From: an uncultured virus (IMG/VR IMGVR_UViG_3300030060_006470)
Taxonomy: Duplodnaviria; Heunggongvirae; Uroviricota; Caudoviricetes
Virus record (IMG/VR): IMGVR_UViG_3300030060_006470
Direction: 5' to 3' (one strand)
DNA: 64,000 bases
This document shows, piece after piece, positions 8,652-27,432 of the stretch. Both the position numbers and the translations under genes were made by a program. The notes under the pieces are model-generated. The model worked only from the letters and a program-made list of their open reading frames with translations. It was not told the origin of the DNA and made no database searches. The first letter of the stretch is position 1. Each line of letters begins with the position of its first letter.

Positions 8652-8670
8652 AGAAAGACAATAATATAAC

Positions 8671-9257: not shown

Positions 9258-9545
9258 ATGGAAAATTTAAACTTAAATGGTATTCATTTAGATATGGATA
9301 CACTAATTGAAAAATATAACGGTGAAATACACTCAGTATTAGACCCTAACGAGATACAACAAATATCTTTATTCTGTCAACACAATAGAACCGATTCTAG
9401 AGTACCAGTTCTAACTGATATGATAAACCCTAAGTATAGTTTCGCAGCACTATACCCTCACATTATGTCAAACCTTGATTACAACCCAGGAATGGGAGAT
9501 AGTTCATTTAACGGCATAAAACAAGGTACAGATGAAAATATATAA
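9258..9545 (+). CDS. Hypothetical protein
   Basis: 95-aa ORF with an upstream promoter-like motif. Confidence 0.6.
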   Translation: MENLNLNGIHLDMDTLIEKYNGEIHSVLDPNEIQQISLFCQHNRTDSRVPVLTDMINPKYSFAALYPHIMSNLDYNPGMGDSSFNGIKQGTDENI

Positions 9546-9975
9546 AGTAAAATATCAATTATATATATTACCATTTATTAAGATAACGCATGATACCATC
9601 CTAAATGGTGAATATGAATTTATTATAGGTTGGCTTAATTTAGAGATGTCAGTATCATTGAAGGTAAAAAATAAAAAAGAAGAAAGAGAACATGATTACT
9701 CTAAACATGGTTCTTACTTAGTTACTGAAAGATTTCACGATGGCTCTTTAAACTTTTTTGAAGTTGGAGACACCATTGAGATAGACTACGAAGTTATACA
9801 TAACAATTATAATCAAAGAAAGTTTGACCACTTCTCAATATTTCATACACCCAAATCAGGTGATGAAGTATACGTGGAAATATTCAATAGAGGTAACCAA
9901 GAAAACTATGATTCAGTAATAGAAAACAGCACAAAGATATCAAACGAAACAACTGGTTTTAAAAGCCCAAAATAA
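9532..9975 (+). CDS. Hypothetical protein
   Basis: 147-aa ORF. Confidence 0.65.
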   Translation: MKIYKVKYQLYILPFIKITHDTILNGEYEFIIGWLNLEMSVSLKVKNKKEEREHDYSKHGSYLVTERFHDGSLNFFEVGDTIEIDYEVIHNNYNQRKFDHFSIFHTPKSGDEVYVEIFNRGNQENYDSVIENSTKISNETTGFKSPK

Positions 9976-10178
9976 ACTTAAAATAATGACGGATATTATA
10001 GATAGTTTAATAAAAAAATACACTAGGCGAATATCGTTTTTACAAAGGTTATGTGACAAAGCTAAGGAAAGAAACGACAAGACCAATATAACTAGGTATA
10101 GACATGCAATACTGGAGCTAGAAAACGTAATAATGGACCTTAGACAAATTAATTCAAAATACTAAATAATATATAAAG

Positions 10179-10188
10179 NNNNNNNNNN
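10179..10188. other. Assembly gap (N run)
   Basis: Ten N bases. Confidence 0.99.
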
Positions 10189-10325
10189 AGACATAGTTGT
10201 GGAAATGGTGAAGGTATGTTTCCAGATGAAAATGGTTATTGGGTAAGTTATGAAGAGTATAAAAAAGTTTTAAGTAAGTATAAAAAACTTAAAAGAAATA
10301 TAAATATTCTATACGGTAAATCAAG

Positions 10326-10688
10326 ATGAGTAAAATGGTGTTTGAATCTAACGATAAAACGTTTGATGTTGTATCTAAATTACAAAGATTTACGTATAGG
10401 TGCCTAAATATGTTTGGTCCAAAAGAAAATCATAAGTACAACGAATTCAGTAAGTTAGAGTTAATGGAACAATGGCATAAAACATTGTTTAAAGACTATA
10501 ACTCAAAACTATGGTTTGACGAAACATTATGGCACCCAGACCAACCAGAATTATATGGAAATGTTGTGATGATTTATATAGAAACATCAGGGGTAGGGTT
10601 TTTAAAACATAAGATTAATTTTAACGAACATACACATGAAATATTTCATGTTGAATTCTTAAATCAAAAGAATATGAATGAGCAATGA
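10326..10688 (+). CDS. Hypothetical protein
   Basis: 120-aa ORF. Confidence 0.65.
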   Translation: MSKMVFESNDKTFDVVSKLQRFTYRCLNMFGPKENHKYNEFSKLELMEQWHKTLFKDYNSKLWFDETLWHPDQPELYGNVVMIYIETSGVGFLKHKINFNEHTHEIFHVEFLNQKNMNEQ

Positions 10689-11182
10689 TTAAAAGTTTGT
10701 TAAGTAAGTTCCGCTCATTAAAAGAGTTTCACGTAAAGATATTCGCAGTTTTTTTCGCAGTTGTAACCCCATTTATAATGGTAACAAGTGGGGAAGTATT
10801 AGGTTCAATATCCCAATACTGGGATACACAATATCAACCTCTTTTTATAATATCAAATGTTATATGTTCTTATTTTTTCTTTTCATTAAAGAACTGGAAA
10901 ATACCTAGTTTATGTCTATTACTAGTAACAGCATTTAACCATTACCAATTTAACACATTACATAATATATTTGCACTTTCTTTTTATTTTGCATGTCTTC
11001 ACAGTCTATTTCAAAATAAGAGATTTACATTATATAGAATATTATTTATGCTATCAATAGCATTATACTTCTATAGTATACTTTTAGGTGAAATAACTAG
11101 TATCGTTATATTATGTTCTCATCACTTAAGAGTTCTGTTGTATAAAGAAAAACTTACTAAAATTAGAAATAACAATAATTAA
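10685..11182 (+). CDS. Hypothetical multi-pass membrane protein
   Basis: Several hydrophobic segments; SISQYW and LHNIFA motifs. Confidence 0.75.
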   Translation: MIKSLLSKFRSLKEFHVKIFAVFFAVVTPFIMVTSGEVLGSISQYWDTQYQPLFIISNVICSYFFFSLKNWKIPSLCLLLVTAFNHYQFNTLHNIFALSFYFACLHSLFQNKRFTLYRILFMLSIALYFYSILLGEITSIVILCSHHLRVLLYKEKLTKIRNNNN

Positions 11183-11193
11183 TTAATATAAAA

Positions 11194-12492
11194 ATGATAA
11201 ACTTTAAAGATTTAAAAAAAATATACAGACTGTTTAAAGATGTTAATATAACAGACATTATTTCCTTTGTGGAAAAGAATCCTAAATTATTAAAAAGTTT
11301 GGGTAAGGAAGAAAAGACAGAAGCCAATTATGATTCGGACTTCTATAACATATTCAATAACTTAACCAAAGAAGATAATGATTTAAGATTAAAGGTTAGG
11401 GCGTTTATGGAAAAAGATGTCAAACCTATTATCAACTACTATTGGTACATAGATGAATTCCCACATCAATTAATACCAAAGCTTAGAAAATTAGATATAT
11501 GTGGTTTATCCTACAAGGGTTATGGTTGCCAAAACAAATCTAGCCTATCAGAAGGCGTTGTAGCCGCTGAACTATCAAGAGTGGACCCTTCACTATCTAC
11601 ATTCATAGGTGTTCACTCAGGACTGGCTATGGGTTCTATTTATCTATGTGGTTCTGAAGAACAAAAACAGTATTGGTTACCAAAAATGAGAAGAATGGAG
11701 ACTATAGGTGCATTTGGACTAACCGAACCATTAGTTGGTTCTGGTGCTGCTGGAGGTCTAACCACCACTTGTGAAAGAAAGGGTGATAAATGGGTTTTAA
11801 ATGGCCAAAAGAAATGGATAGGCAACTCTACCTTTTCCGATATTACTATCATATGGGCTAGAGATGTTAGTGATAACCAGGTAAAGGGGTTTATTGTTGA
11901 AAAAAATAATGTAGGATTCTCAGTGGAGAAGATAGAGGGTAAGATATCCTTAAAAATTGTACAAAATGGACTTATCACATTAGATAATTGTATAGTAGAA
12001 GAAAAGAATAGACTACAAAATGCAAATTCATTTAAAGATACTAGTAGGGTGTTAAAAATGACCAGAGCAGGTGTGGCTTGGCAATCAGTAGGATTGAGCA
12101 TGGGAGCTTATGAAGCCACCGTTAAGTATTGTAACAGTAGAAAGCAATTCGGTAAAACAATAGATTCATTCCAACTAACACAATCTAATTTAGCTAACAT
12201 GTTAGGTGACTTAACAGCAATGCAGAATATGGTCTACCAATTATCTATATTACAAGACATTGGTCAAATGAAAGATGAACAAGCAAGCCTAGCTAAAGTG
12301 TGGATTACCAAAGCAATGAGAAGACTAGTGTCTACTGGTAGAGAATTGTTTGGTGGTAATGGTATTCTATTAGAATATGATATCGCTAAGTATATGGCTG
12401 ATGCTGAAGCATTATATAGTTACGAAGGTACGGCTCAAATTAATGAATTAATTGTGGGTAGAAGCATTACAGGTAAACAAGCATTTATATAA
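11194..12492 (+). CDS. Acyl-CoA dehydrogenase (glutaryl-CoA dehydrogenase-like)
   Basis: GAFGLTEPLVGS, LNGQKKWIGN, RKQFGK, GGNGILLEY, YSYEGT. Confidence 0.93.
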   Translation: MINFKDLKKIYRLFKDVNITDIISFVEKNPKLLKSLGKEEKTEANYDSDFYNIFNNLTKEDNDLRLKVRAFMEKDVKPIINYYWYIDEFPHQLIPKLRKLDICGLSYKGYGCQNKSSLSEGVVAAELSRVDPSLSTFIGVHSGLAMGSIYLCGSEEQKQYWLPKMRRMETIGAFGLTEPLVGSGAAGGLTTTCERKGDKWVLNGQKKWIGNSTFSDITIIWARDVSDNQVKGFIVEKNNVGFSVEKIEGKISLKIVQNGLITLDNCIVEEKNRLQNANSFKDTSRVLKMTRAGVAWQSVGLSMGAYEATVKYCNSRKQFGKTIDSFQLTQSNLANMLGDLTAMQNMVYQLSILQDIGQMKDEQASLAKVWITKAMRRLVSTGRELFGGNGILLEYDIAKYMADAEALYSYEGTAQINELIVGRSITGKQAFI

Positions 12493-12540
12493 ATTCATAA
12501 AATATTTGGTTAATTCATTTTTATTCTATATCTTAGAGAT

Positions 12541-12738
12541 ATGAAAAAGATTTTAATTATTACACCAATTTACATTATACTAATTTCTATTTTTGGATTA
12601 GGATTATTCCATATAACTCAAAGTTGGTATACAAAATTAGTATGTCCTGTATGTGTAAGTTTACTTACATCGATTTGGCTTTCCCTATCAATGATAGAGT
12701 ATGAAGATTATAAAGAACTTAAAAGGGAAAGAAGATGA
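12541..12738 (+). CDS. Small membrane protein
   Basis: Two hydrophobic segments; promoter motif upstream. Confidence 0.6.
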   Translation: MKKILIITPIYIILISIFGLGLFHITQSWYTKLVCPVCVSLLTSIWLSLSMIEYEDYKELKRERR

Positions 12739-12977
12739 GTAATTACAAAAAAGGTGATATAACACAAAACGGATGGGAAGTCCTTGATGTTGTGATGAAA
12801 ACAATATACAAAATGAGAAAACGTGTAACCATTAACGATGATGCACTCAAACATAATGAACAGTATATTGGTAAGAAAGGATGGTGGTATTTTAATGGTA
12901 GATTTAATTGGGTAGAATTAGATGATTACCCAGGTATACAATTTAGATTCAGAGAATTAGAATTAAACCAAAAATAA
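12735..12977 (+). CDS. Hypothetical protein (MSKE array)
   Basis: Bounded by junction motifs. Confidence 0.7.
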   Translation: MSNYKKGDITQNGWEVLDVVMKTIYKMRKRVTINDDALKHNEQYIGKKGWWYFNGRFNWVELDDYPGIQFRFRELELNQK

Positions 12978-12978
12978 G

Positions 12979-13236
12979 ATGAGTAAAGAAGAAAAATTAA
13001 ATGTTGGGGATAAGGTTAGTTTTGTATCTAAAAATAAAAGAAGTGGATTTCCATATAGTGATAAATCTATTGTCTATATAGTTGAAGAAATTGAAAAATG
13101 CGGTACCTTAACACTTAGACAAGATTACTCAGATAAAAGAAAAAAAGGATTTAACACTACAGAACCTGGCGTAATTATACCATCAAAGTTTTTGGATGAA
13201 TTTGAAATAAGAAAACAAAAAGAAGATGAGAGATAA
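12979..13236 (+). CDS. Hypothetical protein (MSKE array)
   Basis: MSKEE start; LNVGDKV suggests a KOW/SH3-like fold. Confidence 0.7.
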   Translation: MSKEEKLNVGDKVSFVSKNKRSGFPYSDKSIVYIVEEIEKCGTLTLRQDYSDKRKKGFNTTEPGVIIPSKFLDEFEIRKQKEDER

Positions 13237-13435
13237 GATAGAAGAACTATTAGATATGAGTGACCCTATGACAAAATCACATTATATGATATGGGATAGT
13301 GGTGATTGTTCAGAAGTAGGACTTTGTGAAATCTTACTTGACCAACTAATAAGAAAACATAAAAAAGATAATGGTGAGTATTACGATACAGACTATGACC
13401 AAATAAAATTAAGATACCAAAACAAAGATGAGTAA
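13226..13435 (+). CDS. Hypothetical protein (MSKE array)
   Basis: Ends QNKDE, read from the motif. Confidence 0.7.
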   Translation: MRDKIEELLDMSDPMTKSHYMIWDSGDCSEVGLCEILLDQLIRKHKKDNGEYYDTDYDQIKLRYQNKDE

Positions 13436-13700
13436 AGAAACAAAGATAATCAAAGACCCGTTTATGGGAGAAATTGAACTGGAGAAGGTAGGCCAAACTT
13501 CATTACATGCAGTCGGTGAAAGTAGAATGGATACTATATACAGTGATAAGAAAGGTAACTTTTGGATTGAAACAACTACTACATTTGGTAGTGACGGAAT
13601 GTTTGAACCAGAACCGATGTTATTCATCAGAAAAGGACTAGTTGATTTAATAACAGAAATAAACCAATTTAAATTTTTTACCTTTAACAAAGATGAGTAA
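13428..13700 (+). CDS. Hypothetical protein (MSKE array)
   Basis: MSKE...NKDE. Confidence 0.7.
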   Translation: MSKETKIIKDPFMGEIELEKVGQTSLHAVGESRMDTIYSDKKGNFWIETTTTFGSDGMFEPEPMLFIRKGLVDLITEINQFKFFTFNKDE

Positions 13701-13890
13701 AGAAGAAGATAAGGAATTAGTCAGTAGGTTACTAAAAGCATCTAACGAAATTCACAAGAAAAGATTAGGTCAAGCAAATTATATACATCTAACAGCAAAA
13801 TTCATACAACAACGAGCAGACGAAGAAGGAGTTACATTTGATGAAATGGTAAAGATAATTGAAGAAGAACTTAAACCAAAACAAAGATGA
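13693..13890 (+). CDS. Hypothetical protein (MSKE array)
   Basis: MSKE...KPKQR. Confidence 0.7.
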   Translation: MSKEEDKELVSRLLKASNEIHKKRLGQANYIHLTAKFIQQRADEEGVTFDEMVKIIEEELKPKQR

Positions 13891-14183
13891 GTAAACAATA
13901 TAATGTAAAGTATGAAGTAGGGCAAGATGTCTATGTATTAAGAGATAAAAAGATAACTAAAAATAGGATAGTCAAGATTAGAGTTACCGAACAACAACCT
14001 TATACTAAGGGTAATCCAGATGGAACTTTTACCGACATGTCGGGTATTGAAATAGATTATCTTATAGAAACAAAAAGAGATTTCATACATCCACATACAA
14101 AACGTACCCAAAGTTCATACGATTGGTACAATGAAGAAGATGTCTTTACTAATAAGGATGAATTGATTGCACAAATTGTATAA
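13887..14183 (+). CDS. Hypothetical protein (MSKE array)
   Basis: MSKQ start; stop is the first TAA of the motif. Confidence 0.7.
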   Translation: MSKQYNVKYEVGQDVYVLRDKKITKNRIVKIRVTEQQPYTKGNPDGTFTDMSGIEIDYLIETKRDFIHPHTKRTQSSYDWYNEEDVFTNKDELIAQIV

Positions 14184-14195
14184 ACCAAAAAGAAG

Positions 14196-14399
14196 ATGAG
14201 TAAAAAAGTAACACATATGACAACTGAGGAAATTAATTCAGAAAGAATTGAATTAGAACCTATGGTATTGTTAATGAAAGAAACCAATGTTGTAGAACAC
14301 GATGGTATAAACTATTTCGACATATCTAAACGATATCATGAATTGTGTAAAGAATCGGTTGTAAGAGAGCTATTAAACCAAAACAAAGAAGATGAGTAA
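14196..14399 (+). CDS. Hypothetical protein (MSKE array)
   Basis: Ends LNQNKEDE. Confidence 0.7.
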   Translation: MSKKVTHMTTEEINSERIELEPMVLLMKETNVVEHDGINYFDISKRYHELCKESVVRELLNQNKEDE

Positions 14400-14727
14400 A
14401 GAAGAAATACTTTCTGAACTAAAACAAATACTTGATGATGCCAATGGTTACGATATTGACCCATACATCATTGAGCAATTAATAGAAAAAAACAAAGTGA
14501 GTAAAGAATACACCATAGAACACTACGAAAGGTTTAACAACGAAAAGGGTGAAATACTATCCTTAAATAAAAAGGATAATAACTGCGAAGATATAGAAAA
14601 AGGTGATACACTTATTCTAGATGTTGGTAGGTATAGAGCAGTAGAGGTAGAACACTTCAAGGCATTCAATGGTGGTAAGGGACAAAACGTATTAGTACTA
14701 ATCAAATTAATAACAATAAATGAGTAA
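14392..14727 (+). CDS. Hypothetical protein (MSKE array), apparent fusion of two cassettes
   Basis: Internal AACAAAGTGAGTAAAGAA (KVSKE) at about 14491-14508. Confidence 0.7.
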   Translation: MSKEEILSELKQILDDANGYDIDPYIIEQLIEKNKVSKEYTIEHYERFNNEKGEILSLNKKDNNCEDIEKGDTLILDVGRYRAVEVEHFKAFNGGKGQNVLVLIKLITINE

Positions 14728-14950
14728 AGAATTAAGAAAGAATTATAGAATACCTACTATTGATGAATTTGTTGATGAATTTGAATTTGAAGTATATTCA
14801 GAGGGATATTTTGAAGATAGCGTAGAATCCTTTTGTGGATGGTATAAGTATAAATTCGGTTGTGATAATTGGAGAGATTTAGATGAAATACAAAGAGAGA
14901 TAGATTTAGGAAATATACAATGTTATATTATTAAAAAGAAAAGAAGATGA
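14720..14950 (+). CDS. Hypothetical protein (MSKE array)
   Basis: MSKE start. Confidence 0.7.
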   Translation: MSKELRKNYRIPTIDEFVDEFEFEVYSEGYFEDSVESFCGWYKYKFGCDNWRDLDEIQREIDLGNIQCYIIKKKRR

Positions 14951-14956
14951 GTAAAT

Positions 14957-15052
14957 GGTAGAGTTTGACTTGACAGACATTGGATAAAGGGGTGGCGCGA
15001 TTCAAGGTGGAAAAAACCTAAACCCGAAACAGTTCGAATCTGTTATCTACCA
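14957..15052 (+). ncRNA. tRNA-like RNA occupying one cassette slot of the MSKE array
   Basis: GGTAGA/TCTACC-A acceptor, T-arm AACAGTTCGAATCTGTT; junction motifs on both sides. Confidence 0.6.
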
Positions 15053-15078
15053 AATACCATCTAAAAACCAAAACAAAG

Positions 15079-15300
15079 ATGAGTAAAAGAGAACCAAAAT
15101 TAGACCCATATTTAGACCACCTAGTAACAAAAGATGGTAGGAAATATAAAAAAGTTTATGTGATGTATGTCGATGGTGACGAACTTCTATGCGATTGTTG
15201 TAATGAAAAGAAACCAAGAGCGGTAATTAGATTACTAAGTGGTGATATAACAGGATTATGTGAAGATTGTATAAGAGATATATTAACAGTATTTGATTAA
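15079..15300 (+). CDS. Zn-finger-like hypothetical protein (MSKE array)
   Basis: CDCC...CEDC. Confidence 0.7.
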   Translation: MSKREPKLDPYLDHLVTKDGRKYKKVYVMYVDGDELLCDCCNEKKPRAVIRLLSGDITGLCEDCIRDILTVFD

Positions 15301-15599
15301 ACCAAAACAAAGATGAGTAAAGAAAGATTACTTAAATTAGTATCCGATGAAAAAACAGATACAATTAATCGAAATAAACAGAGAATAAAATGGAGGTGGT
15401 TTATACGATTAAAAAATAAGATTAAATTATTTTACTTAACATTATTAGACAAAAATGAGTAAAGAAACATATACCGAAGAACAAATAATTACCATCATCA
15501 AAGCGTTTCATCTCGATTCAGTAGAAGGTAATTATTCAAAAGAATTGTTAATGTTTTGTAATAATTGGATAAACAATAATATTATTAATAACACAGAAG

Positions 15600-15809
15600 A
15601 TGAGTGAAGAAGATTCAATAGAGGAGTATAAAAAGGCGCAAGACGTTATACGTAGTTGCATTAATGATTTGGATAGGAATATTAAACTTGCTAGAAAAGA
15701 GGGACCATCTGAACAATTAGATGATATGTTGTCTACAAGAAAAAGTTTCCTTAAAGAATGGGAATCTTATGAAGAATTTATTAAAGATTTAAATAGATAC
15801 GATGGATAA
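15600..15809 (+). CDS. Hypothetical protein (MSKE array)
   Basis: MSEE start. Confidence 0.65.
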   Translation: MSEEDSIEEYKKAQDVIRSCINDLDRNIKLARKEGPSEQLDDMLSTRKSFLKEWESYEEFIKDLNRYDG

Positions 15810-16122
15810 AAAAGAAATGAAGAAACTGATGTCTTCCATGTTAATTACCAAAAGTGTAGTTACATGCCACGCAGAAATAAATCCTGATATGGCTAAACAT
15901 TATGGTGTTGCAACTTATGAAGGAATAATAAAAAATGAATTATTTTATCAGTTTGCAAATGAATGTAAAAAATCTATTAGTATGAAAAAGAAAGATTATA
16001 CTTATGAGCTAAAAGCTATGGTACTACCTTTTGATTATATTAAAGATTTTATTGAAGCTTATGTAATGATGATGCCTAGAGAAAGATTAGATGAACTTTT
16101 AAAAGATAGACATGATGGATAA
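15802..16122 (+). CDS. Hypothetical protein (MSKE array, MDKKE variant)
   Basis: GATGGATAAAAAAGAA junction. Confidence 0.7.
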   Translation: MDKKEMKKLMSSMLITKSVVTCHAEINPDMAKHYGVATYEGIIKNELFYQFANECKKSISMKKKDYTYELKAMVLPFDYIKDFIEAYVMMMPRERLDELLKDRHDG

Positions 16123-16372
16123 AAAAGAATTAATAGAGAAGTTAAAAGATATTAAAATAGGTGAATACTTTGAGTGCCCAGTCAACTTACCACCAGCTGA
16201 TGTAAATAAGATATTAGAAGATATCCTAGGCTCATATGTTGACATATCTGAAGATTGGAATGGTTGTGATTTAGATTGGTCATTAATGGATGATTTAATT
16301 ATTGATGATATGGTGTTTAAGGTGTGGGGTTCTGCATTTCAAGGTTGGCTAATATTTAAACGTGAAAAATAA
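16115..16372 (+). CDS. Hypothetical protein (MSKE array, MDKKE variant)
   Basis: GATGGATAAAAAAGAA junction. Confidence 0.7.
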   Translation: MDKKELIEKLKDIKIGEYFECPVNLPPADVNKILEDILGSYVDISEDWNGCDLDWSLMDDLIIDDMVFKVWGSAFQGWLIFKREK

Positions 16373-16379
16373 AACAAAG

Positions 16380-16562
16380 ATGAGTAAAAAAAGATACATA
16401 GGGTTAATTCATGATGAGAGAAATGATGACTTTACAATAGGGTATAACATTTCAACTAACATAAAGAAAATGTTAAAATGGAAAAAAGAAATGTCAAATT
16501 GTGTAGATGTTGAAGATTGTAAAGTATTTGAGATTAAAGAAATAAACCAAGAAGATGAGTAA
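16380..16562 (+). CDS. Hypothetical protein (MSKE array)
   Basis: MSKK...INQEDE. Confidence 0.7.
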   Translation: MSKKRYIGLIHDERNDDFTIGYNISTNIKKMLKWKKEMSNCVDVEDCKVFEIKEINQEDE

Positions 16563-16791
16563 AGGAAAACTCAGAAATATAAATGTAAGGGGGGTAGAAT
16601 GGAAATATATCATAGAGCATGATATGGATATAAAAGCAGAGGTGAGAATATATAATCCCAGCACTAAACAAATTATAAAGAGAGTAGAATTTAGTGAACT
16701 TGGATTCGGTGAATATGAAATTGAACATGGTGGTTGTAATATAACACCTAAAATGATAAGAGAATATATTCAAGATAATTTGCATATATAA
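16555..16791 (+). CDS. Hypothetical protein (MSKE array)
   Basis: MSKG start. Confidence 0.7.
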   Translation: MSKGKLRNINVRGVEWKYIIEHDMDIKAEVRIYNPSTKQIIKRVEFSELGFGEYEIEHGGCNITPKMIREYIQDNLHI

Positions 16792-16836
16792 AAAACATTT
16801 GCTATATTTACATTATGAAAGATAAAAGAAAAAAAG

Positions 16837-17283
16837 ATGAGTAAAGAAGAACAATTAAAAAAACTAAAACTAGCATGTTCTAAAATGAAAATTGATTTTG
16901 GGTATTTTATATGGAAATCCTATCTAACTGTTGAATTAGGTAAAGGATATAAACCAACAGTTGAGCAACTAGATGACTTATATTGTGGACTTGTTTCTGG
17001 AGTATTATGTAATCTTGGTAGTGGAAAGAAACCTGAATTTATGGAAGGTATTGGACCTACAAAAGAAGAAAGGTACGCAATCGAAGGTTATCAAAAGTTA
17101 AGAGACAATTTAATTTATATGGGTGGTATAGAATATCCATATGAAGAATGGATAGAACAAAATTCGGAATCTGAAGAATGGGTGGACCTAGCATTAAAAG
17201 CATCGAAACTAGATAGAGAATTCGATAAAAACCCAGAAGAGTGGTGTATACAACTAAGAAATAATTGTAAATCAAGAAGATGA
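16837..17283 (+). CDS. Hypothetical protein (MSKE array)
   Basis: 148 aa; internal promoter just upstream. Confidence 0.75.
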   Translation: MSKEEQLKKLKLACSKMKIDFGYFIWKSYLTVELGKGYKPTVEQLDDLYCGLVSGVLCNLGSGKKPEFMEGIGPTKEERYAIEGYQKLRDNLIYMGGIEYPYEEWIEQNSESEEWVDLALKASKLDREFDKNPEEWCIQLRNNCKSRR

Positions 17284-17601
17284 GTAAAGAATATACATTA
17301 GAAGAAAAAGTTGATTACTTAGAAAACCTATTAGGGTACAGACCAATTGAAACAGAATTACACACCAAGGAAGGTTTGGGCAGTTTTGAATGGGAAGTTA
17401 ATCAAGATTTTAGTCACTTATTTAAACCAAAACAAAGATGAGTAAAGAAATAAAACTAGCAGAACATTATTGTACAAGTGAATATGATATACTTGAAGAT
17501 AAAGGTAATGGTTATATTGTAGTAAAACTAAACGAACCCTTTAAGCACCATCCCACTGAAGAACCTAGTAATGTGTTTCTAACTCAAAAACCAAAACAAA
17601 G

Positions 17602-17790
17602 ATGAGTAAAGAAAGAGACTATAACAAAATAGATGCTTTGAAATACCTAGTGGAAACTGGTCCTAAGTACATAAACGAATGGACTGAAGCGGGTATGTAT
17701 CATATACTAAGAAAAGTAATCCTAGAAGAAACCGAGAGATATACTAAAGAAATGTTAGATGCACTATTAGTATGCGCATCAAATAATTAA
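17602..17790 (+). CDS. Hypothetical protein (MSKE array)
   Basis: MSKE start. Confidence 0.7.
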   Translation: MSKERDYNKIDALKYLVETGPKYINEWTEAGMYHILRKVILEETERYTKEMLDALLVCASNN

Positions 17791-17803
17791 ACGGAAAAGA
17801 AAG

Positions 17804-18079
17804 ATGGATAAAGAAGAACCATTAGACGTAGCAAATATACTAAGTAATATATTAGAAGAAGAATTAAAAAAGGTAAGAGAAGAATCATTTAAACCACTAA
17901 TGGAACTATTTGATAAGTATAATATTTCTCCTGAGAATAGACTTAAAATATTAGTAGAATCTCATATAGAAACAATTGAACACTTTAAGAAGAAGGGTCA
18001 AATAATGGAAGATACTTACCTGATAAGTGTTACCATGAAAAATATTGAGAACTTTAAAAAACAAAGTAAAGATGAGTAA
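17804..18079 (+). CDS. Hypothetical protein (MSKE array)
   Basis: MDKEE...QSKDE. Confidence 0.7.
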   Translation: MDKEEPLDVANILSNILEEELKKVREESFKPLMELFDKYNISPENRLKILVESHIETIEHFKKKGQIMEDTYLISVTMKNIENFKKQSKDE

Positions 18080-18213
18080 AGAAGAAAAAATAAAAATAAC
18101 ACTACCTGACGGAAATGAGATATCGTGGGAAGACTTTGTAAAGTCTACTCCAAAAGATGATATAATTGATGAAATTAATAAAGATATATTGGATAAATTA
18201 AAAAGGAAAGAAG

Positions 18214-19044
18214 ATGAGTAAAGAAGAAAATAAGAAAACTATAACATTAACTCTTGATGAATTGAAAGACGATTCCTTTAAAACTATAGATAATGTTAAA
18301 TATCTTTTACCTACTGATGAAACTGGCTCCGCAACTGAAAAGGATAAGTGGTGGTGGTACAAATCATTAAAGATTGACCAACCGACAATATATAAAAAGA
18401 TATTTCTGGACAATAACATCACACCATATGATTGTGAGTCTATCGTATATGAAGAATTTAATATAGATGAAATTGATTATCCAGACTACCTATCATTTAT
18501 AGGTTCTGACCAAAACGAACCATATGTATTTGTTGATGTAAAACTTAATGACGGTAGAAGATTTGTAGTGGAACGTATTAAATACCTATTTGGCTATATT
18601 AAGATAAAACAAATCCACAAGTTTTCATTTAAGGGTGAACCACACCTACTATATGAAGTTATCGATGAAAGAATAATGGAAGACCTTGACCCAGAATACT
18701 TCGATAGTGAGTACGACTTTTTCGCTGAATTATGTGGTTTTAAAAGAGACTACTGGCCTGATGAATTGGAAGAACTTGATATATATAGTGTCATGTATAA
18801 GAAAACCATGGAATTAAATATTCTAGGGACTATGGATGTATATCTAATCGTCAATGAAAATGGGTCTGTTGACTGCAATTTGGAGATATATCCTTCAGAT
18901 GACGATGTAGTTGATATGTTTGAAATAACAGATAAATTATTTGAACAAGAAGAAGATATACAAGTTATGCTTTCAATACTTAATGTAGCTAAGATTGTTA
19001 GCGATGATGATGCAGACTTTATATTAAATGAATTAATAGATTAA
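18214..19044 (+). CDS. Acidic hypothetical protein (MSKE array)
   Basis: 276 aa, D/E-rich. Confidence 0.8.
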   Translation: MSKEENKKTITLTLDELKDDSFKTIDNVKYLLPTDETGSATEKDKWWWYKSLKIDQPTIYKKIFLDNNITPYDCESIVYEEFNIDEIDYPDYLSFIGSDQNEPYVFVDVKLNDGRRFVVERIKYLFGYIKIKQIHKFSFKGEPHLLYEVIDERIMEDLDPEYFDSEYDFFAELCGFKRDYWPDELEELDIYSVMYKKTMELNILGTMDVYLIVNENGSVDCNLEIYPSDDDVVDMFEITDKLFEQEEDIQVMLSILNVAKIVSDDDADFILNELID

Positions 19045-19055
19045 AACAAAATAAA

Positions 19056-19622
19056 ATGGAAGAAACAATTAATTTCGAATTTAAAGTAAAAGAATTTAAA
19101 ACTAAATCAGGTGAAACCTTTAAACCCGATGTAGATAATCTTATTGCAATATTTAAAGGCTTTATACAGGATGAAGAAACAAGACTAGAAAACCTGGTTA
19201 AACATAAAGACGAGGAAGATGAACTTGGAGAAACACATGAGTTAACATACGAAGAAGCTAAAGACCCAAACTTCATATACCAAGAGAATGTATCCTACAA
19301 TACATCTGATGAAAAAACAAGTAGCTGGATGCATTATAGAACGCTAGAAAAAATAGTCCCAGAAGTAATCGAAACACTATACGCTGACACATCCCCAGAT
19401 AATTGTATTACCTACGATGTATGGATATACGAAACAATAAAATTCACTATGGAAATAAATGAATGTGAAAGAAGCTATTGTATTGATACCGAAGAATACT
19501 TTAAGGAAGAAGTACAAACATCTCAACTATATAGCATGGTCGTGGAACTAATGAAATTTGAATATGAAAAAACATCACATGTAGTATACTATACAATATA
19601 TGATGAAGATTACGAAGACTAA
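19056..19622 (+). CDS. Acidic hypothetical protein
   Basis: 188 aa, D/E-rich. Confidence 0.8.
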   Translation: MEETINFEFKVKEFKTKSGETFKPDVDNLIAIFKGFIQDEETRLENLVKHKDEEDELGETHELTYEEAKDPNFIYQENVSYNTSDEKTSSWMHYRTLEKIVPEVIETLYADTSPDNCITYDVWIYETIKFTMEINECERSYCIDTEEYFKEEVQTSQLYSMVVELMKFEYEKTSHVVYYTIYDEDYED

Positions 19623-19705
19623 AAAACAAAACAAATAATACCAATGAATAATTTGCATATGTCAAAAAAATTTATTATATTTACATTATTAAAAATAAAA
19701 AAAAG

Positions 19706-19987
19706 ATGAGTAAAGAAACGCCAAATTTATTTAGAACCGATGAATTGGTTCAATCAGAAAAAGCAATCGACTTTGCATTTAAATCATTGAAGGCTGAATG
19801 GAATCATGATGATGAGTTCCTAATGAAAGTAGCAAAGCAATTTGAATGTGCCTCAGAGGGTAACATCTTCCTAGACCAACTGGATGCTGCGTGTGATGAT
19901 ATACACGAAGGTTGGGTAAGATACTGTGAGTACAGAGATATTGAACACGAAATAGATGATAACCCTTTTATTGACGAAGATGAGTAA
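19706..19987 (+). CDS. Hypothetical protein (MSKE array)
   Basis: MSKE start; internal promoter upstream. Confidence 0.7.
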   Translation: MSKETPNLFRTDELVQSEKAIDFAFKSLKAEWNHDDEFLMKVAKQFECASEGNIFLDQLDAACDDIHEGWVRYCEYRDIEHEIDDNPFIDEDE

Positions 19988-20148
19988 AGAAGATATGAAA
20001 TATCCAAACTGGAATGGAATTTACGGATTCTTAGGTAATAGTATTTATGGAAATGGATTTGTCTATGCTGCTGAAACTGCAGAAAAGATAAAACTAAAAG
20101 GACAGGAAGTTCTTAAAGAATTATTAGAACAGAGATTAAACCAAGAAG

Positions 20149-20457
20149 ATGAGTAAAGAAAAAGAAATAGGGGAAAGATTAATAAACGTTATGACCAAAT
20201 TAGAAGATTTGGGAGTATTCTATGGAAAGAATTATAGCGGTGAATATCATGAAAAATATCCACATTCATCTTATTGGTTTAACATGGATATGGACCAACA
20301 CAGAGGTGGTTTTGAAACCCATATTATGTATGATGGGGATGAATATGAAACAATATCAGTAGGTGGTGGAGATAACGCAATAGAACAACTATTAAGTGTT
20401 CTTGAGAAATCATATAATAAAATTGTAGAATACTTAAACCAAAACAAAGATGAGTAA
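20149..20457 (+). CDS. Hypothetical protein (MSKE array)
   Basis: MSKE...LNQNKDE. Confidence 0.7.
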   Translation: MSKEKEIGERLINVMTKLEDLGVFYGKNYSGEYHEKYPHSSYWFNMDMDQHRGGFETHIMYDGDEYETISVGGGDNAIEQLLSVLEKSYNKIVEYLNQNKDE

Positions 20458-20734
20458 AGAAAATCCATTTTATAAAAAGTTATCCTATAATATAACTAGA
20501 GAAGGGTCTAAATATCCTTTTAGAAATGATTATACTTATAAGTTTTCAACTGGTCAGTTTTTAGAAAAAATAGATGATTTATCCAGCATGTCATCATATA
20601 CATACAACGAAATAAAACAAATAGCAATAGATTCATTAGTAGAAGAATTTAGAATATCATTAAACAGTGTAGTATTTGGAGACCCTGCTGGAAAAGATTA
20701 TATTAAATCAATAAACCAAAACAAAGATGAGTAA
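20450..20734 (+). CDS. Hypothetical protein (MSKE array)
   Basis: MSKE...INQNKDE. Confidence 0.7.
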   Translation: MSKENPFYKKLSYNITREGSKYPFRNDYTYKFSTGQFLEKIDDLSSMSSYTYNEIKQIAIDSLVEEFRISLNSVVFGDPAGKDYIKSINQNKDE

Positions 20735-21014
20735 AGAAGAAATTAATATAAATATGGAAGAAGTATACGTGTTTCCTCATGTGAGATATGTAGCATTACA
20801 CGGCAACCCTAAACCAACATATATCTATAAAAAGTACGTAGGCAACCACGAATCATTAACTAATGGAAAGGTATATGAATTCCATCAAGCCTTATTTTCA
20901 CCAAATAGAGAAACGACTAGAAAAAAGGTTTGGATAACCAAAACAGATATTGGACCATATGTTAGGTATGAAGACACAATAAACCAATGGGTAGATACAA
21001 GTAAACCAAAATAA
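20727..21014 (+). CDS. Hypothetical protein (MSKE array)
   Basis: MSKE...KPK. Confidence 0.7.
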   Translation: MSKEEININMEEVYVFPHVRYVALHGNPKPTYIYKKYVGNHESLTNGKVYEFHQALFSPNRETTRKKVWITKTDIGPYVRYEDTINQWVDTSKPK

Positions 21015-21016
21015 AC

Positions 21017-21271
21017 ATGAGTAAAGAAGAAAAAAAAGAATTGCCATTGATAAAACATCTACTTGATAAGATAGGTGATAGTGATATAGTACCAACAAGA
21101 AAGGTAACTACTAACATACTTTTTGCACCATCAATTGCTGGTGAAAGTAAAATAAAAAGAATGATAACTCACAACAACAAAATAGTTGGATGCTTATATG
21201 AAGATGATAATATAATTTGGTTCGATATGCCAGAAGCTGAAGAAGCTAAAAAATTATTAGAAGATGAGTAA
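21017..21271 (+). CDS. Hypothetical protein (MSKE array)
   Basis: MSKE...EDE. Confidence 0.7.
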   Translation: MSKEEKKELPLIKHLLDKIGDSDIVPTRKVTTNILFAPSIAGESKIKRMITHNNKIVGCLYEDDNIIWFDMPEAEEAKKLLEDE

Positions 21272-21479
21272 AGAAATAATATACGAAGTTGGAGATGTAG
21301 TTACAACACCAAGAGGTGAAGGTAAGATAGTCTATAAAGATGTCAACCCAGCGAACTATGAAGCAATTAAAGCACTAGATAGTATTGGTGATTGGTTTTA
21401 CATGGTAGAGCATAATGAAGATAACTGGTCTGGACCATATAAGTATTATCAATTAAACCAAAACAAAGAAGATGAGTAA
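21264..21479 (+). CDS. Hypothetical protein (MSKE array)
   Basis: MSKE...LNQNKEDE. Confidence 0.7.
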   Translation: MSKEIIYEVGDVVTTPRGEGKIVYKDVNPANYEAIKALDSIGDWFYMVEHNEDNWSGPYKYYQLNQNKEDE

Positions 21480-21637
21480 AGAAGAATTATACCAAAAGGT
21501 ATTACTAAAGTGGGGATTCAATTGGTTGCCAGCAACACCGCCAGGAACTTGTTTACATTCATTTGATGAATTCACTAGAAAGATAGAATCGGATAATGAA
21601 TTCTATAATAAAGTTGTTAAAGAAATAAACCAAGAAG

Positions 21638-21940
21638 ATGAGTAAAGAAAGATTTTATTTAAAGTGGGGATACAATGAACCGCGACACCCAAAAGAAACA
21701 CATGGAGAATTTACATGGGAAACTGGTATTGGAACAGATTTATTCAAAGGATACTTTCTAGTGTTTGATGAAGATACAACATTAAACCAATGGAGAGCAA
21801 AAGAAATTGAAATATGGGAAAACTTAATGAAAGACTTCAAACAAGATAATAAGGTTCAATCATTAGCTGCTGTAATTAAACCAAACGAAGAAAAAATAAA
21901 AAAGATTGAGTCAGATAATAATTTTATTAAATGGATTTAA
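21638..21940 (+). CDS. Hypothetical protein (MSKE array)
   Basis: MSKE start; stop is the motif TAA. Confidence 0.7.
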   Translation: MSKERFYLKWGYNEPRHPKETHGEFTWETGIGTDLFKGYFLVFDEDTTLNQWRAKEIEIWENLMKDFKQDNKVQSLAAVIKPNEEKIKKIESDNNFIKWI

Positions 21941-21952
21941 ACCAAAACAAAG

Positions 21953-22138
21953 ATGAGTAAAGAAGAAAAATTAAACATTAACATCACATTGACAGATGAA
22001 TCAGGGTTTATTGTAAAAGGAAAATCTAAAGTAACATTAGAAGCGTACAAAGATATCAAGAAGTTTCACAATCTATCTATATTAGACGAAACATTAGAAA
22101 TGATGTTAGAAAACTTAAACCAAAAAGAAGATGAGTAA
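21953..22138 (+). CDS. Hypothetical protein (MSKE array)
   Basis: MSKE...LNQKEDE. Confidence 0.7.
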   Translation: MSKEEKLNINITLTDESGFIVKGKSKVTLEAYKDIKKFHNLSILDETLEMMLENLNQKEDE

Positions 22139-22343
22139 AGAACAGCCAGTAGATTTAGGACAATGGCTTAAACACTTATCATTTTGGCATAATAAGTCAG
22201 ATGATGAATGTATTGAACTAGCAACAAATGAATATGGTGTAAATGCAGAAGAGGCTCTTAAAAATATATTTGAAAGAGATTTCTGTACAAGTATTAATAA
22301 TAATGTTGTAGAGAAATTATTAAACCAAAACAAAGATGAGTAA
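22131..22343 (+). CDS. Hypothetical protein (MSKE array)
   Basis: MSKE...LNQNKDE. Confidence 0.7.
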   Translation: MSKEQPVDLGQWLKHLSFWHNKSDDECIELATNEYGVNAEEALKNIFERDFCTSINNNVVEKLLNQNKDE

Positions 22344-22575
22344 AGAATTTAAACCAAAAAGAAAATTAAAGGAAAGATATTCATTAGAAGGTATTGCTAA
22401 AAGCAAAGGCATAACAGTTGATGAATTAAAGAACCAAATAAAAACTAACCAAGAAGAAAGGAAAAAGATATTAGATAAGTACATTAAAAAGGGTATGACG
22501 ACTGAACAAGCAAATAGAATGACTATGTTAGAACTATACATACCTGGATTTACTGGACCGACATTTAAAGATTAA
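22336..22575 (+). CDS. Hypothetical protein (MSKE array)
   Basis: MSKE start. Confidence 0.7.
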   Translation: MSKEFKPKRKLKERYSLEGIAKSKGITVDELKNQIKTNQEERKKILDKYIKKGMTTEQANRMTMLELYIPGFTGPTFKD

Positions 22576-22866
22576 ACCCAAACAAAGATGACTAGAAGAG
22601 AAGTAGAGGAAAAGATAAGTAAAGAAAAAAATTTTAACGTAGGATTAGGATTTGGAATAGCAATAGGAATAATCCTGACAATATGTTTGGAAATTGCATT
22701 TTTGCAACTCTACCGAATTATTAATTTGACTTAAAAACAAAAAAGAAGATGAGTAAAGAAGAAATTGATTTAGGAGAAATGATTAATGTGTGGATTAAAC
22801 ATCATGGAAGTTTAGATTTAGACACAGATGAACAAACAATTATTGACTTTTATAACAAAAAAAAAG

Positions 22867-23040
22867 ATGAGTAAAGAAGATAAGAAACCAAAATTAATTA
22901 TACCTTCAAAAGAAGATATAGAAAGAAATGAACAAATGCGGAAGGATATAGAATGGCTAAAAGAAAAAATTATTAAAGCATCTATGATTCCTAGAAAGTA
23001 TTTCGATAGTAAAGATAAAACAGATAATACCAATGAATAA
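22867..23040 (+). CDS. Hypothetical protein (last MSKE cassette)
   Basis: MSKED start. Confidence 0.65.
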   Translation: MSKEDKKPKLIIPSKEDIERNEQMRKDIEWLKEKIIKASMIPRKYFDSKDKTDNTNE

Positions 23041-23076
23041 TTTGCATATATAAAATATATTCCTTATACTTGTATT

Positions 23077-23403
23077 ATGAAATTAATAGATACATTAAAC
23101 AACCAATTAAAGGGTAAAAGAATCTTCGTATATAGATACGAACTTAAATTCCAACCAACACTACCTAAACAACTTCAGAAAACTATAATACATTACTACA
23201 TTAACACAGACAATGAAGACGCACATCAACTACCAAAATGGGAAGTAATAAACTTTAAAAAGGTCGAAGTAACTGTTAATAGTGTTGATGGTTATTTCGA
23301 AGATTATGAAGGGAACCATATACACATAAACTTTAATTCGTTAGAAGATGAAGAATATAACATGTATGTTCAAGTTAACCAAGAAATAGAAGTAATTAAA
23401 TAA
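23077..23403 (+). CDS. Hypothetical protein
   Basis: 108-aa ORF with its own promoter-like motif. Confidence 0.7.
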   Translation: MKLIDTLNNQLKGKRIFVYRYELKFQPTLPKQLQKTIIHYYINTDNEDAHQLPKWEVINFKKVEVTVNSVDGYFEDYEGNHIHINFNSLEDEEYNMYVQVNQEIEVIK

Positions 23404-23569
23404 AAGGATATGAAATTTATACCAGTACAAAAAGATAACGTAAAGACATTTAAATACAAGGTATACATACATGGTGATATTAATGAATTCTTAGAACAAC
23501 AAAATAGATGTATTATCACAGAAATTAAACTAATACATGAAGTAAAAAGAATACTCAGTAAGTAATTTA

Positions 23570-25190
23570 TATGTATGTTACTACACTAATTAATACACCC
23601 CTTATTACTTCATATAAGAGCCTCTAAGAGACTTTATAATATGTTCCTATAACTTATGTATTCCATATCCGTTTTGTCCTTATATTAGCACGTTTCGCTT
23701 TTTTGGGGTAAAGTGGGAAAATGTGGTAAACGGTGGTAAAGAGTGGGATTTTGAGTAAGAGCTGTACCAGGGAATATAAAATATATACTAAATAGGTTAT
23801 TTTATGGCATAATTAAGATTAACCTCTGGCCACCTACTCGACAAATTTTATATTATTTTTTATAAAATCCCTGTTAAATATACTATACGATATTTCTTAC
23901 CACAAATTACCACAGAAATTAATTGTACCTTTTTGTATATCCTAAAATGTACACATTTGTGTATATGGCGGCAGAATTATTTTGATATATAAAATGATAT
24001 TATCTGTGTAAATATATTGTATAATATATGTGTTTAAATATAGTATGATATATGATAGATATATTATATTGACTGGCATATAATATATGATTTAATAAAT
24101 GCCAGTAAATTAAAATACTGGCAATAATTAGTTAAGATATAACCTGCCATATATCCTATAAAAATATATTAATATAAATGTAATTACCTGGGGAGATATT
24201 GTCACGGGACCTACTGATATTATATACGATATACTAGTTGAATTATAACCTGTCATATATCATATATTATTTGACAATACTTTCCTGGGTCACTCAAATT
24301 GAGCATCCTCGTCCATCATACCCGTTCAGGTAATCAGGGGGTCATTTTCTCCCGTCCCAGAATGTACACATTTGTGTATAAGGTTCTGGTCCTGGCTTCT
24401 CCAGCTGCGTCTTGCTGGCCGTATATATTTATAATATTTATTTTGTATTAAATCCTGTTTTATATTATCAGGTTATATATCATATAATATATAATTCAAA
24501 TATATTGCGCCCGTTATTCTTAATAACTATTATTAGCGCTTATAATAATCAGGCTGCACCTATAATATATAATCCAGTATGTCTGTAGTGAAATGTATAT
24601 CCCTGGGTCTGGCCTCCAGCTGCATCGCGGGTCCCATAATAAAATTAACGGGAGCACCTGACGCCGTAAACCTTGTACGGGATAAAAGCTTGCAATGAAT
24701 TCTGGGGACCTGGGTCACCCGTGTGAGACTCTTAGGAAAATCTCGTGCAAGCTTGAGCGGTACCATGCTATGTTTTCAGGTTATACACAAATGTGTATAT
24801 GGTGCCGTCATCCTTATTCTAGATATCGATTGTTAAATATAAAATAACATTTAACGATTTTTATCCAGATACTAGGTTACCCGCGAGAATCTCTTCAGGC
24901 GGGATTAAAAATCATGAGGCAATATGCGCCTCATTTAAATATATGTTGCAATATACAAATAATATTTCAATTGACCAAATCTAAAATGATTTTTGGTCAG
25001 GATGTATATATTATATTGTATACGTATATATACGATTATAAAATATAAAGTAATATGCATATGTATGCACCTGGATGTTTCACCTGGCGTCATATCATGT
25101 ATCCTATTATATCGTATAATGTCATTAAAATATAGTAAAGATATTTCATGTGACCAAATATAAAATAAAATTAAAGAAATATTAAATAAT
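23570..25190. other. Large non-coding region (candidate origin, terminus or long ncRNA locus)
   Basis: About 1.6 kb without a credible ORF; alternating AT- and GC-rich blocks; three TACACAWWTGTGTA palindromes; many CCWGG/CCTG motifs. Confidence 0.7.
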
Positions 25191-25248
25191 ATTTGGATAA
25201 TAGGAAATAATATATTACATTTACAGAAATCATTTAAAAACATATAAT

Positions 25249-25746
25249 ATGAAGACGTATAAATTTAAAGTAGAAGTACCTGAAATTAACAATGGTAAAA
25301 GCAGTTTACTAGATAGCTTTATTAATGAAGCTAGAGATGAGCAAAGACAATTAGATATTACTCATAGGATTAATAAAAAAACAACGGAAGTACATAGACA
25401 GATACTTCTTGATTTTATTACTGAGATAAATGAGCAATTAAGTAGTATTGGTTTTAATGAGTTTAAACTCCGAATTGACCTTGGTATTGGAGATAATTAT
25501 TACTATGAGAGTGAAGCTAGATTGATAACCCCTAAAAAGTCTTATAGACTTTATATTATGGGGGAAAATGACCGAGAGTTTGAAGATAGTAAATATACTA
25601 CATTTACGGGTGAATATAAATTTAAATTCGGTATTAGTAACTCAGCATATCCGCAGAGTGTGGAGACTGTAGATGATGTGTTAACTAAGTTGAAAGATGA
25701 AATTATTGAGCATATTAAAAAAAATAGAGAAATAGTTGCAAATTAA
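25249..25746 (+). CDS. Hypothetical protein
   Basis: 165 aa with promoter. Confidence 0.75.
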   Translation: MKTYKFKVEVPEINNGKSSLLDSFINEARDEQRQLDITHRINKKTTEVHRQILLDFITEINEQLSSIGFNEFKLRIDLGIGDNYYYESEARLITPKKSYRLYIMGENDREFEDSKYTTFTGEYKFKFGISNSAYPQSVETVDDVLTKLKDEIIEHIKKNREIVAN

Positions 25747-25791
25747 ATTATATTGTTTTATATTTACAGAAATCATTAAAATTATAGAGTT

Positions 25792-26283
25792 ATGGGATTA
25801 GATATGTATTTGAGTAAAAGAACTTATGTTAAGAATTGGAACTTCCAAAAGGATGAGGAGAAACATAAGGTAACTGTAAAATTCAACGGTAAGTCTAGGA
25901 AGGACATTAAACCTAAAAGAATTAGCCACATAATAGAAGAGGTTGGTTATTGGAGAAAAGCTAACCACATACATAGTTGGTTTGTTGAGAATATTCAAGA
26001 TGGTAGAGATGAGTGCCAAGAGAGTTATGTTTCATTGGAACGGTTAACAGAGTTAAGAGATTTATGTAAAGAGGTTGTTAAGTATAAGAATAGTGAGTTT
26101 AACAATGACAACTTACCTACTAGTAGTGGTTTCTTTTTCGGTAGTACTGAATATGGTGAGTATTATTATGAGGATTGTAAGGATACTATTAAAATACTAA
26201 ATACTATTCTTAAGGATGAAGAGATTATACGTGATACTAAAGGTATATACAGTTCAGAATATTATTACCAAGCTAGTTGGTAG
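25792..26283 (+). CDS. Conserved phage hypothetical protein (MGLDMYL family)
   Basis: MGLDMYL...YWRKANHIHSWF...LPTSSGFFFGSTEY...YQASW. Confidence 0.85.
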   Translation: MGLDMYLSKRTYVKNWNFQKDEEKHKVTVKFNGKSRKDIKPKRISHIIEEVGYWRKANHIHSWFVENIQDGRDECQESYVSLERLTELRDLCKEVVKYKNSEFNNDNLPTSSGFFFGSTEYGEYYYEDCKDTIKILNTILKDEEIIRDTKGIYSSEYYYQASW

Positions 26284-26388
26284 TATTTACTAGGGTTTGA
26301 AAAAAACTTTAAAGAAATATTAAATAATATTTGGATAATACAAAATAATATATTATATTTACATTGTAATCATTAAAAGATAAACGTT

Positions 26389-27315: not shown

Positions 27316-27329
27316 ATAGAGATTGTGGG

Positions 27330-27352: not shown

Positions 27353-27432
27353 TGTTAATAACTTAATTTGCATGGGTGGAATTTATTTCGTACCTTTGCA
27401 AATTTTTTATTTGTGGGGGGTAAAAAAAATAT

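Follow-up and report, generated by a model that had tools for sequence, protein, structure and literature searches.

A near-invariant junction, probably a three-frame stop–restart linker, joins shuffled gene cassettes in an uncultured phage

Phage genomes are rich in small, fast-turnover genes of unknown function, many of which probably counter host defences, and little is understood of how phages acquire, lose and trade them. A 64,000-nucleotide stretch of DNA from an uncultured member of the Caudoviricetes (IMG/VR record IMGVR_UViG_3300030060_006470; hereafter, the window) raises the question within a single locus: between positions 12541 and 23040 it carries an array of small open reading frames (ORFs), or cassettes, joined by variants of one short sequence that ends one frame and begins the next. 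What is this junction for, and why does it vary so little? An earlier note on this DNA, made from the letters alone, described about 40 mutually unrelated ORFs lying back to back, each preceded by the motif, and suggested an integron- or CRISPR-like system in which any DNA captured between two motifs would be expressed. Here we show that cassettes are reordered at the junction between related phages, and we consider it probable that the junction is a standard translational stop–restart linker for a host without Shine–Dalgarno (SD) initiation, doubling as a short homology for the exchange of ORF bodies.

The array comprises 42 small ORFs (38–276 amino acids) that follow one another on the + strand in one unbroken chain, with a GC content of around 30%. 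A junction 20-mer, AAACAAAGATGAGTAAAGAA, has 28 matches in the window when up to three mismatches are allowed, 27 of them on the + strand at 12971–22878 and one at 53456, compared with a mean of 0.08 and a maximum of 1 in 100 dinucleotide shuffles. An 18-nt core, TAAACCAAAACAAAGATG, is restricted to the array, with all 12 window matches (at most one mismatch; 0.01 in shuffles) on the + strand between 13872 and 22590. Exact copies stand at 13872–13889 and from 15298, 17423, 20435, 20712, 21938 and 22321, and copies with one mismatch begin at 14374, 15064, 17587, 21454 and 22573. The description of a motif before every ORF therefore stands in part: ATG-AGT opens 33 of the 39 array genes scored and MSKE 28 of them, but the full motif is not present at each ORF, the upstream core being found at 12 array junctions.

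The joints are tight. On the same strand, 37 of the 41 junctions lie between −11 and +14 nt; neighbouring ORFs overlap by 8 nt (the ATGAGTAA type) at 19, by 4 nt (ATGA) at 5 and by 11 nt at 2, the motif-initial TAA acts as the stop and is followed by a 12-nt gap at 4, and longer gaps (36, 45, 83 and 128 nt) occur at only four. The junction at 20435–20461 (+) is a full example, in which one ORF ends in ..NQNKDE with its stop at 20457 and the next, MSKE, starts at 20450, giving an 8-nt overlap. At gene boundaries, the linker takes the form TTAAACCAAAACAAAG-ATG-A-n-TAA.

The same junction letters encode NQNKDE in one frame and KPKQR in another, and at some junctions they are untranslated. The motif TAA is the stop at 14183, 15300, 21940 and 22575, ..NQNKDE ends at 20457, 20734 and 22343, and ..KPKQR at 13890, 17441 and 17605, each at exactly the coordinate first reported. 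Serine at the second codon is AGT in 33 of 33 cases, accounting for 33 of the 39 array genes, against 35 of 132 serine codons (27%) inside the genes; because this bias lies far above internal usage, the constraint acts on the nucleotides and not on the protein, as the earlier note had supposed. The finding bears on the idea that the cassettes are old tandem copies of one small gene, with ends kept by protein-level selection on MSKE and NQNKDE, for which the shared termini and occasional duplicates within an array (two MIDKIEEL cassettes in contig L022) would speak. We find this scarcely credible, given that the same nucleotides serve in three frames, that codon 2 is so uniformly AGT, that lengths run from 38 to 276 amino acids and that an all-against-all BLASTP search of 40 cassettes returned a single weak pair (E = 0.01), so that at this level the ORFs are indeed mutually unrelated.

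Stops in all three frames recur in other phages. There the motif is constant in its upstream half, whereas the N terminus varies (MIKE, MNK. or MKK.). The base after ATG is A, creating TGA, at 165 of 168 distinct core sites compared with 70 of 127 non-array genes, and a third-frame stop follows within two codons at 126 of the 168 compared with 19 of the 127. When the 49 sites that had brought loci into the set and the window itself are omitted, the values are 106 of 109 for ATGA and 67 of 109 for the third-frame stop. Of 167 sites, 67 are entered by an upstream ORF (30 codons or longer) in frame B, 34 in frame C and 30 in frame A. Judged by these counts, the three-frame stop property is conserved and not incidental, and the earlier description of a junction that stops every frame and restarts translation is upheld.

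Is the motif simply how this phage starts its genes? The earlier note had named this among the outcomes that would overturn its reading, and the outcome is negative: the motif is not the phage's general start context. Besides the near-absence of matches elsewhere in the window, other window genes are preceded by different upstream motifs, and in five related phage contigs (103–242 kb) the 54 core matches fall on one strand and in one clustered region each. Among 59 sources examined, 35 have at least three core copies on one strand. An exact 25-mer of the junction occurs at 57 IMG/VR loci spanning 24–40% GC, mostly with unrelated flanks, and nowhere in 185,579 genomes of prokaryote species; in the 21 Mb of five Flavobacteriaceae genomes there are two core matches, against one for the reversed control. 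When compared with 50,697 GenBank phage records by megablast and blastn, the array had no match. The motif string was not found in the literature searched, in which nothing on junctions, coupling or mosaicism came closer than the promoter-early stem-loop (PeSL) elements discussed below, and nothing was found on T4-like Flavobacteriaceae phages with hyperplastic regions.

Comparison with close relatives shows the cassettes to be mobile. All of the evidence comes from metagenome assemblies, with public sequencing runs compared as contigs. In the IMG/VR contig L009, the left flank of the array (5768–12543, +; a porin gene, small genes and an acyl-CoA dehydrogenase gene at 11194–12492) is colinear and 91–95% identical with the window, serving as a fixed-synteny control. 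Seven array blocks, by contrast with the window, stand in a different order in L009, and neighbouring blocks overlap in the motif; at each block end, sequence of about 95% identity gives way to a random level of similarity within the motif, at a point that varies from end to end and with small 3-nt slips. Two larger cassettes (276 and 188 amino acids; 18214–19622, +) shift as one block between the two genomes, and a movable promoter-bearing spacer at 16771–16851 (+; TTTGCA-N18-TATATT at 16779–16808) precedes a different cassette in L009. Two adjoining cassettes at 13693–14183 (+) have different histories: relative to contig L023, their bodies are identical at 111 of 155 (72%) and 261 of 271 (96%) positions, and the steps in identity coincide with junction motifs. 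For the 23 joints listed among those of three other marine runs, 42 of 46 endpoints are no more than 30 nt from a cassette boundary (median, 10 nt), whereas random placement put 13.1 there on average and never more than 26 in 10,000 trials. Synteny is thus not fixed and breakpoints fall at the motif, which together bear out the proposal that the junction is the site of cassette exchange. The breakpoints take varying positions within the motif, which is what homology-driven exchange, rather than a fixed cut, would be expected to give.

Chimeric joining by assemblers at a repeated sequence of 25–41 nt in mixed populations could mimic such a pattern, and it would accord with the exclusive use of assemblies, with Logan contigs of run X1 that end at several junctions and with the 52% of aligned X1 material that continues into unlike sequence. 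We nevertheless hold it to be very improbable. Three separate assemblies give the L009 order, namely L009 itself, the independent metagenome contig L060 and Logan contigs of run X2 (depth of around 150); one joint that the window lacks (14731>20471) is found with 15 identical inserted letters in runs from two studies; and the repeat, at no more than 41 nt, is shorter than the reads. Shared cassettes, moreover, differ by 4–50% between phages and most cassette families are private to one, showing that the arrays are not one genome reshuffled.

Across phages, shared cassettes almost never keep their neighbours. In 26 dereplicated phages, 351 cassettes form 234 families, of which 27 are present in at least two phages and 207 are private to one, and among 48 homologous cassette pairs one case in 43 retains its downstream neighbour and one in 38 its upstream neighbour. 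Homologues of 17 of the 42 window cassettes were found among 139 loci. Cassettes of 200–520 nt reach 85–96% identity in contigs whose other matches to the window, at 23100–43000, are no longer than 66 nt.

Are the cassettes genes, or merely captured DNA made translatable by its borders? By ORF calls, BLASTP, Pfam and PHROG, nearly all cassettes of the array (12541–23040, +) are without a known family: Pfam gave no match above cut-off for any of the 42, and PHROG nothing better than E = 1.4 × 10−4. In thirteen orthologous pairs, substitutions number 52, 49 and 84 by codon position, with 54 synonymous and 107 non-synonymous codon changes, so the cassettes are coding, though weakly constrained. 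The cassette at 20149–20457 (+) belongs to a real protein family with 33 homologues; an alignment of 24 of them (47–91% identity) has 20 invariant columns, and the structure is predicted with a pLDDT of 90 as an α-β3-α fold, for which Foldseek found no match in the PDB at E ≤ 0.001. Resemblances to a double-stranded-RNA-binding domain (dsRBD-like), T7 Gp1.2 and HPF (TM scores of 0.3–0.46; probability of at most 0.35) do not count as evidence. The N termini in this family are MSKE, MNRE, MNKE, MKNK or long extensions, and the C-terminal tails are ..NQNKDE, ..KQKEDEKIIRK, ..NQK or ..KPKQ and are absent in distant members. Because the ends vary with context while the body is conserved, the termini belong to the junction and not to the protein. 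The earlier note's view that any captured DNA would be expressed is, by the same family, too strong, the cassettes being real genes. The cassette at 18214–19044 has near-identical homologues only (6 proteins, 83–97%), which give no functional lead.

How might such a chain be expressed? A promoter box precedes 5 of 38 array genes and is lacking at 32 of them, compared with boxes at 48 of 86 genes at 25–58 kb, and no + strand terminator was found inside the array. One internal promoter-like site (TTTGCA-N18-TATATT; 19652–19681, +), located in the 83-nt spacer, starts the last polycistronic unit (19706–23040), and another copy, found by motif at 23041–23070 (+), lies past the array and marks its right end. 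With so few promoter-like sites and no + strand terminator, the array can therefore be read as three or four polycistronic units, which may be expressed early. Of 39 array genes, one is preceded by an SD-like word, as are two of the 112 other genes. Huber et al. reportedly described, in 2019, translational coupling by termination–reinitiation at overlapping stop and start codons; from the overlaps seen here, together with established knowledge of termination–reinitiation, we infer that translation of adjacent cassettes may be coupled in this way. The junctions are weakly folded, with a mean minimum free energy (MFE) of −0.75 kcal mol−1 for windows from −25 to +16 compared with −3.09 kcal mol−1 inside genes (P = 3 × 10−10) and no structure at all in 21 of 39; folding of these 39 windows gave no attC-like hairpin or inverted repeat. 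The motif places A at −3, −6, −12 and −13, positions that are reported, in the part of the study by Baez et al. concerned with them (2019, PMC6847099), as measured positive determinants in Flavobacterium johnsoniae.

Among its roughly 165 small genes, the window encodes an OmpL-like porin, an acyl-CoA dehydrogenase and an ammonium transporter. This last protein is 73–79% identical to those of marine Flavobacteriaceae, and on this one acquired gene the host is probably a member of that family. No structural or recombination gene of the phage was seen in the window. Gp23 (PF07068), the T4-type major capsid protein, is above the cut-off in three of the five related array-bearing contigs and was not found in the one closest to the window, which is 29% complete. 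A tblastn search with the window protein at 38325–39041 returned only a widespread accessory gene at less than 60% identity, of no use for placing the phage. In our reading, the array is probably a hypervariable stretch of accessory genes in a large T4-type phage of marine origin.

The search for enzymes that could act on the junction was largely negative. Tyrosine recombinase (PF00589) is absent from all five related contigs, the same search being positive in 14 of 14 control genomes, and from the 31 scanned window ORFs (at least 140 amino acids, plus 5670–6776), among which there was also no cas domain. Reverse transcriptase (RT) was found in none of the five contigs and serine recombinase in one, 23 kb from its array; a 96%-complete contig lacks all three and carries RecA-family genes. 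With junctions that have no hairpin and breakpoints that vary within the motif, these results do not support the integron- or CRISPR-like mechanism that was originally suggested.

They also bear on a broader version of dedicated exchange, in which the motif is the recognition site of a phage recombinase, nuclease or annealase not yet recognised as such, in the manner of an integron attC site. Its appeal lies in the exact identity of 18–25 nt across phages of 24–40% GC with unrelated flanks, in the almost total loss of neighbour conservation and in the hundreds of proteins of unknown function among which such an enzyme could hide. Against it stand the distribution of recombinases and RT just described, including the 96%-complete contig devoid of all three enzymes, a junction with no inverted repeat or hairpin, and breakpoints at differing motif positions with 3-nt slips; we judge it improbable. 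A more ambitious scheme would make the linker a 'plug standard' common to many marine flavobacterial phages that draw on one gene pool, with bare ORF bodies actively moved between co-infecting genomes by an unrecognised phage function, be it programmed template switching or a nuclease or annealase specific for the motif, and with arrays acting as a nursery in which captured or newly arisen frames would be expressed at once and tested by selection. We regard this as speculative and unlikely.

A quite different possibility is that the junction is an RNA operator. Phage T4 has two proteins, RegA and RegB, whose targets are early start regions, and a RegA-like repressor or RegB-like endoribonuclease that binds or cuts the junctions would shut the genes off together, leaving the shuffling as a by-product. 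Conservation of the motif beyond the needs of a start site, its limitation to one gene class per phage and the T4-type kinship of the array-bearing contigs would fit. Pfam models for RegA (PF01818) and RegB (PF10715) had no match in the five contigs, a search that had no positive control and so permits no conclusion; an operator alone also leaves the conserved stops in unused upstream frames unexplained, and we judge this explanation improbable too.

We therefore return to the stop–restart linker that doubles as a homology, and propose how it would work. On the mRNA, it would stop an incoming ribosome whichever frame the upstream ORF had used and would offer an unstructured, A-rich, SD-free start, at which translation would resume by termination–reinitiation or by fresh loading. 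On the DNA, many identical co-oriented copies would supply 15–40 nt of homology at which general homology-driven recombination, or copy-choice in recombination-dependent replication, could act. ORF bodies would thereby be deleted, duplicated, reordered and exchanged, both within one genome and between co-infecting phages, and because the linker is valid in every frame, new neighbour pairs would be expressed at once. Repeated exchange would, in turn, keep the linker copies identical.

Several observations weigh against this proposal. No known requirement of a start site calls for conservation approaching that of the exact 18-mer, the motif goes unused in the likely host family, and some 125 other genes in the window do without it, so translation alone cannot explain the sequence. 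Homologies of 15–40 nt are short for RecA-type recombination, and RecA-family genes are above the cut-off in only one of the five contigs. The third-position substitution bias in the cassettes is only mild. The repeat itself could cause assembly mis-joins, as the broken X1 contigs recall. Finally, relatives with a dehydrogenase of about 85% identity have no array in the stretch of up to 10 kb surveyed downstream of that gene, and the position of the array is therefore not fixed. The exactness of the core across divergent phages and the stops kept in unused frames are not explained by translation and general recombination alone; we prefer concerted evolution through frequent exchange as the explanation for both, with a motif-specific factor as the main alternative.

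Should the linker act as proposed, the exchange unit is a bare ORF body, with all punctuation (three-frame stops, start and SD-free context) held in one linker. It would be a compact natural design for frame-independent polycistronic assembly, and its arrays a natural experiment on the start sites of SD-blind ribosomes. It also provides a simple sequence handle with which to find such arrays in metagenomes, making the flux of ORFans between phages directly measurable by tracking cassettes across samples.

Other features of the window lie outside this argument. Past the dehydrogenase, a host-like metabolic gene in a phage (11194–12492), the contig L063 (Ga0209535_1003855; dehydrogenase 94% identical) carries at 290–5156 downstream one array cassette and then four large genes (228–760 amino acids); as these replace the array, we regard this place as a hot spot for insertions in general. 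The ammonium transporter gene (Pfam E = 1 × 10−114), likewise host-like, is overlapped by that of the OmpL-like β-barrel porin in a stretch of higher GC (4484–6776; 35–37%). A scaffold gap of 10 N at 10179–10188 corresponds to about 227 nt in L009. An Rfam tRNA of 122 nt at 7555–7676 (43.8 bits), which ARAGORN did not report, may contain an intron, and ARAGORN's tRNA-Met at 50298–50382 is absent from the list of the Rfam gathering search. DUF932 (26389–27315), DUF6915 (34938–35381) and a weak PcfJ-like match (63015–63950) belong to families of conjugative elements of Bacteroidota, and lie here in a phage.

Two further kinds of repeated gene unit are present. At 25249–58297, about 86 small genes have another organisation, with a TAYAYT box at a fixed upstream distance in 48: 34 of these have a leader of about 18 nt containing ATTAAAAC, and in the other 14 the box lies 12–13 nt before the ATG, suggesting leaderless mRNAs. 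Short motifs of these units recur in contig G005, and several of the genes are reordered in L037. The units resemble PeSL promoters, as does the spacer at 16771–16851, with no stem-loop shown. A third repeated junction of about 30 nt, with TGGTAAAATAGAGTGTAAACAGATTAGTAT before the ATG, joins three small ORFs at 52–613 (window 1–620) and recurs near 3608–3830, partly on the other strand, and possibly at 24560–24766.

How, then, does the linker compare with known systems? Integrons likewise hold one-directional, mostly promoterless and unrelated small genes with a repeated junction and variable order and content. Here, in contrast, the five related contigs and the 31 window ORFs yielded no tyrosine recombinase, IntI included; the junction is unstructured, has no imperfect inverted repeat and is part of both ORFs; and the array sits in a lytic-type phage, whereas integrons occupy a platform on a chromosome or plasmid. 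In place of the short, uniform, non-coding spacers of CRISPR arrays there are ORFs of 38–276 amino acids (117–831 nt with the stop). By these defining features the array is neither an integron nor CRISPR-like. Co-directional overlaps of 4 or 8 nt at 24 of the 41 junctions recall ordinary termination–reinitiation, in which overlaps are specific to a gene pair; here, one sequence of 18–28 nt serves dozens of junctions, across phages, and keeps stops even in unused frames. The modular theory of lambdoid phages holds that short conserved gene-boundary ('linker') sequences guide homologous module exchange, but those are sporadic and weakly conserved, whereas here one near-invariant linker with translational punctuation recurs in a dense array.

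The SD-independent starts of Bacteroidia share with the linker A at −3, −6, −12 and −13, weak structure and no SD; as far as the published account describes them, host regions show a loose A-rich preference (Baez et al. 2019, PMC6847099), whereas the exact core is nearly absent from the five Flavobacteriaceae genomes. The closest known system is the PeSL, in the available descriptions a short conserved sequence flanking ORFans in the hyperplastic regions of T4-type phages, within which the breakpoints of indels and replacements between close relatives fall and for which homologous recombination is credited (Arbiol et al. 2010, PMC2839356; Comeau et al. 2014, PMC4122927). Here too, breakpoints between close relatives lie in a conserved motif that flanks ORFans, in the different host world of marine Flavobacteriaceae. 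The PeSL as those papers present it is a transcriptional unit between genes, a σ70-like promoter with a terminator stem-loop (PMC2839356, PMC4122927), whereas the linker has neither promoter nor stem-loop, lies inside a polycistronic unit, overlaps both coding ends and carries a start and stops valid in three frames. By this analogy, the linker can be regarded as the translational counterpart of the T4-type PeSL.

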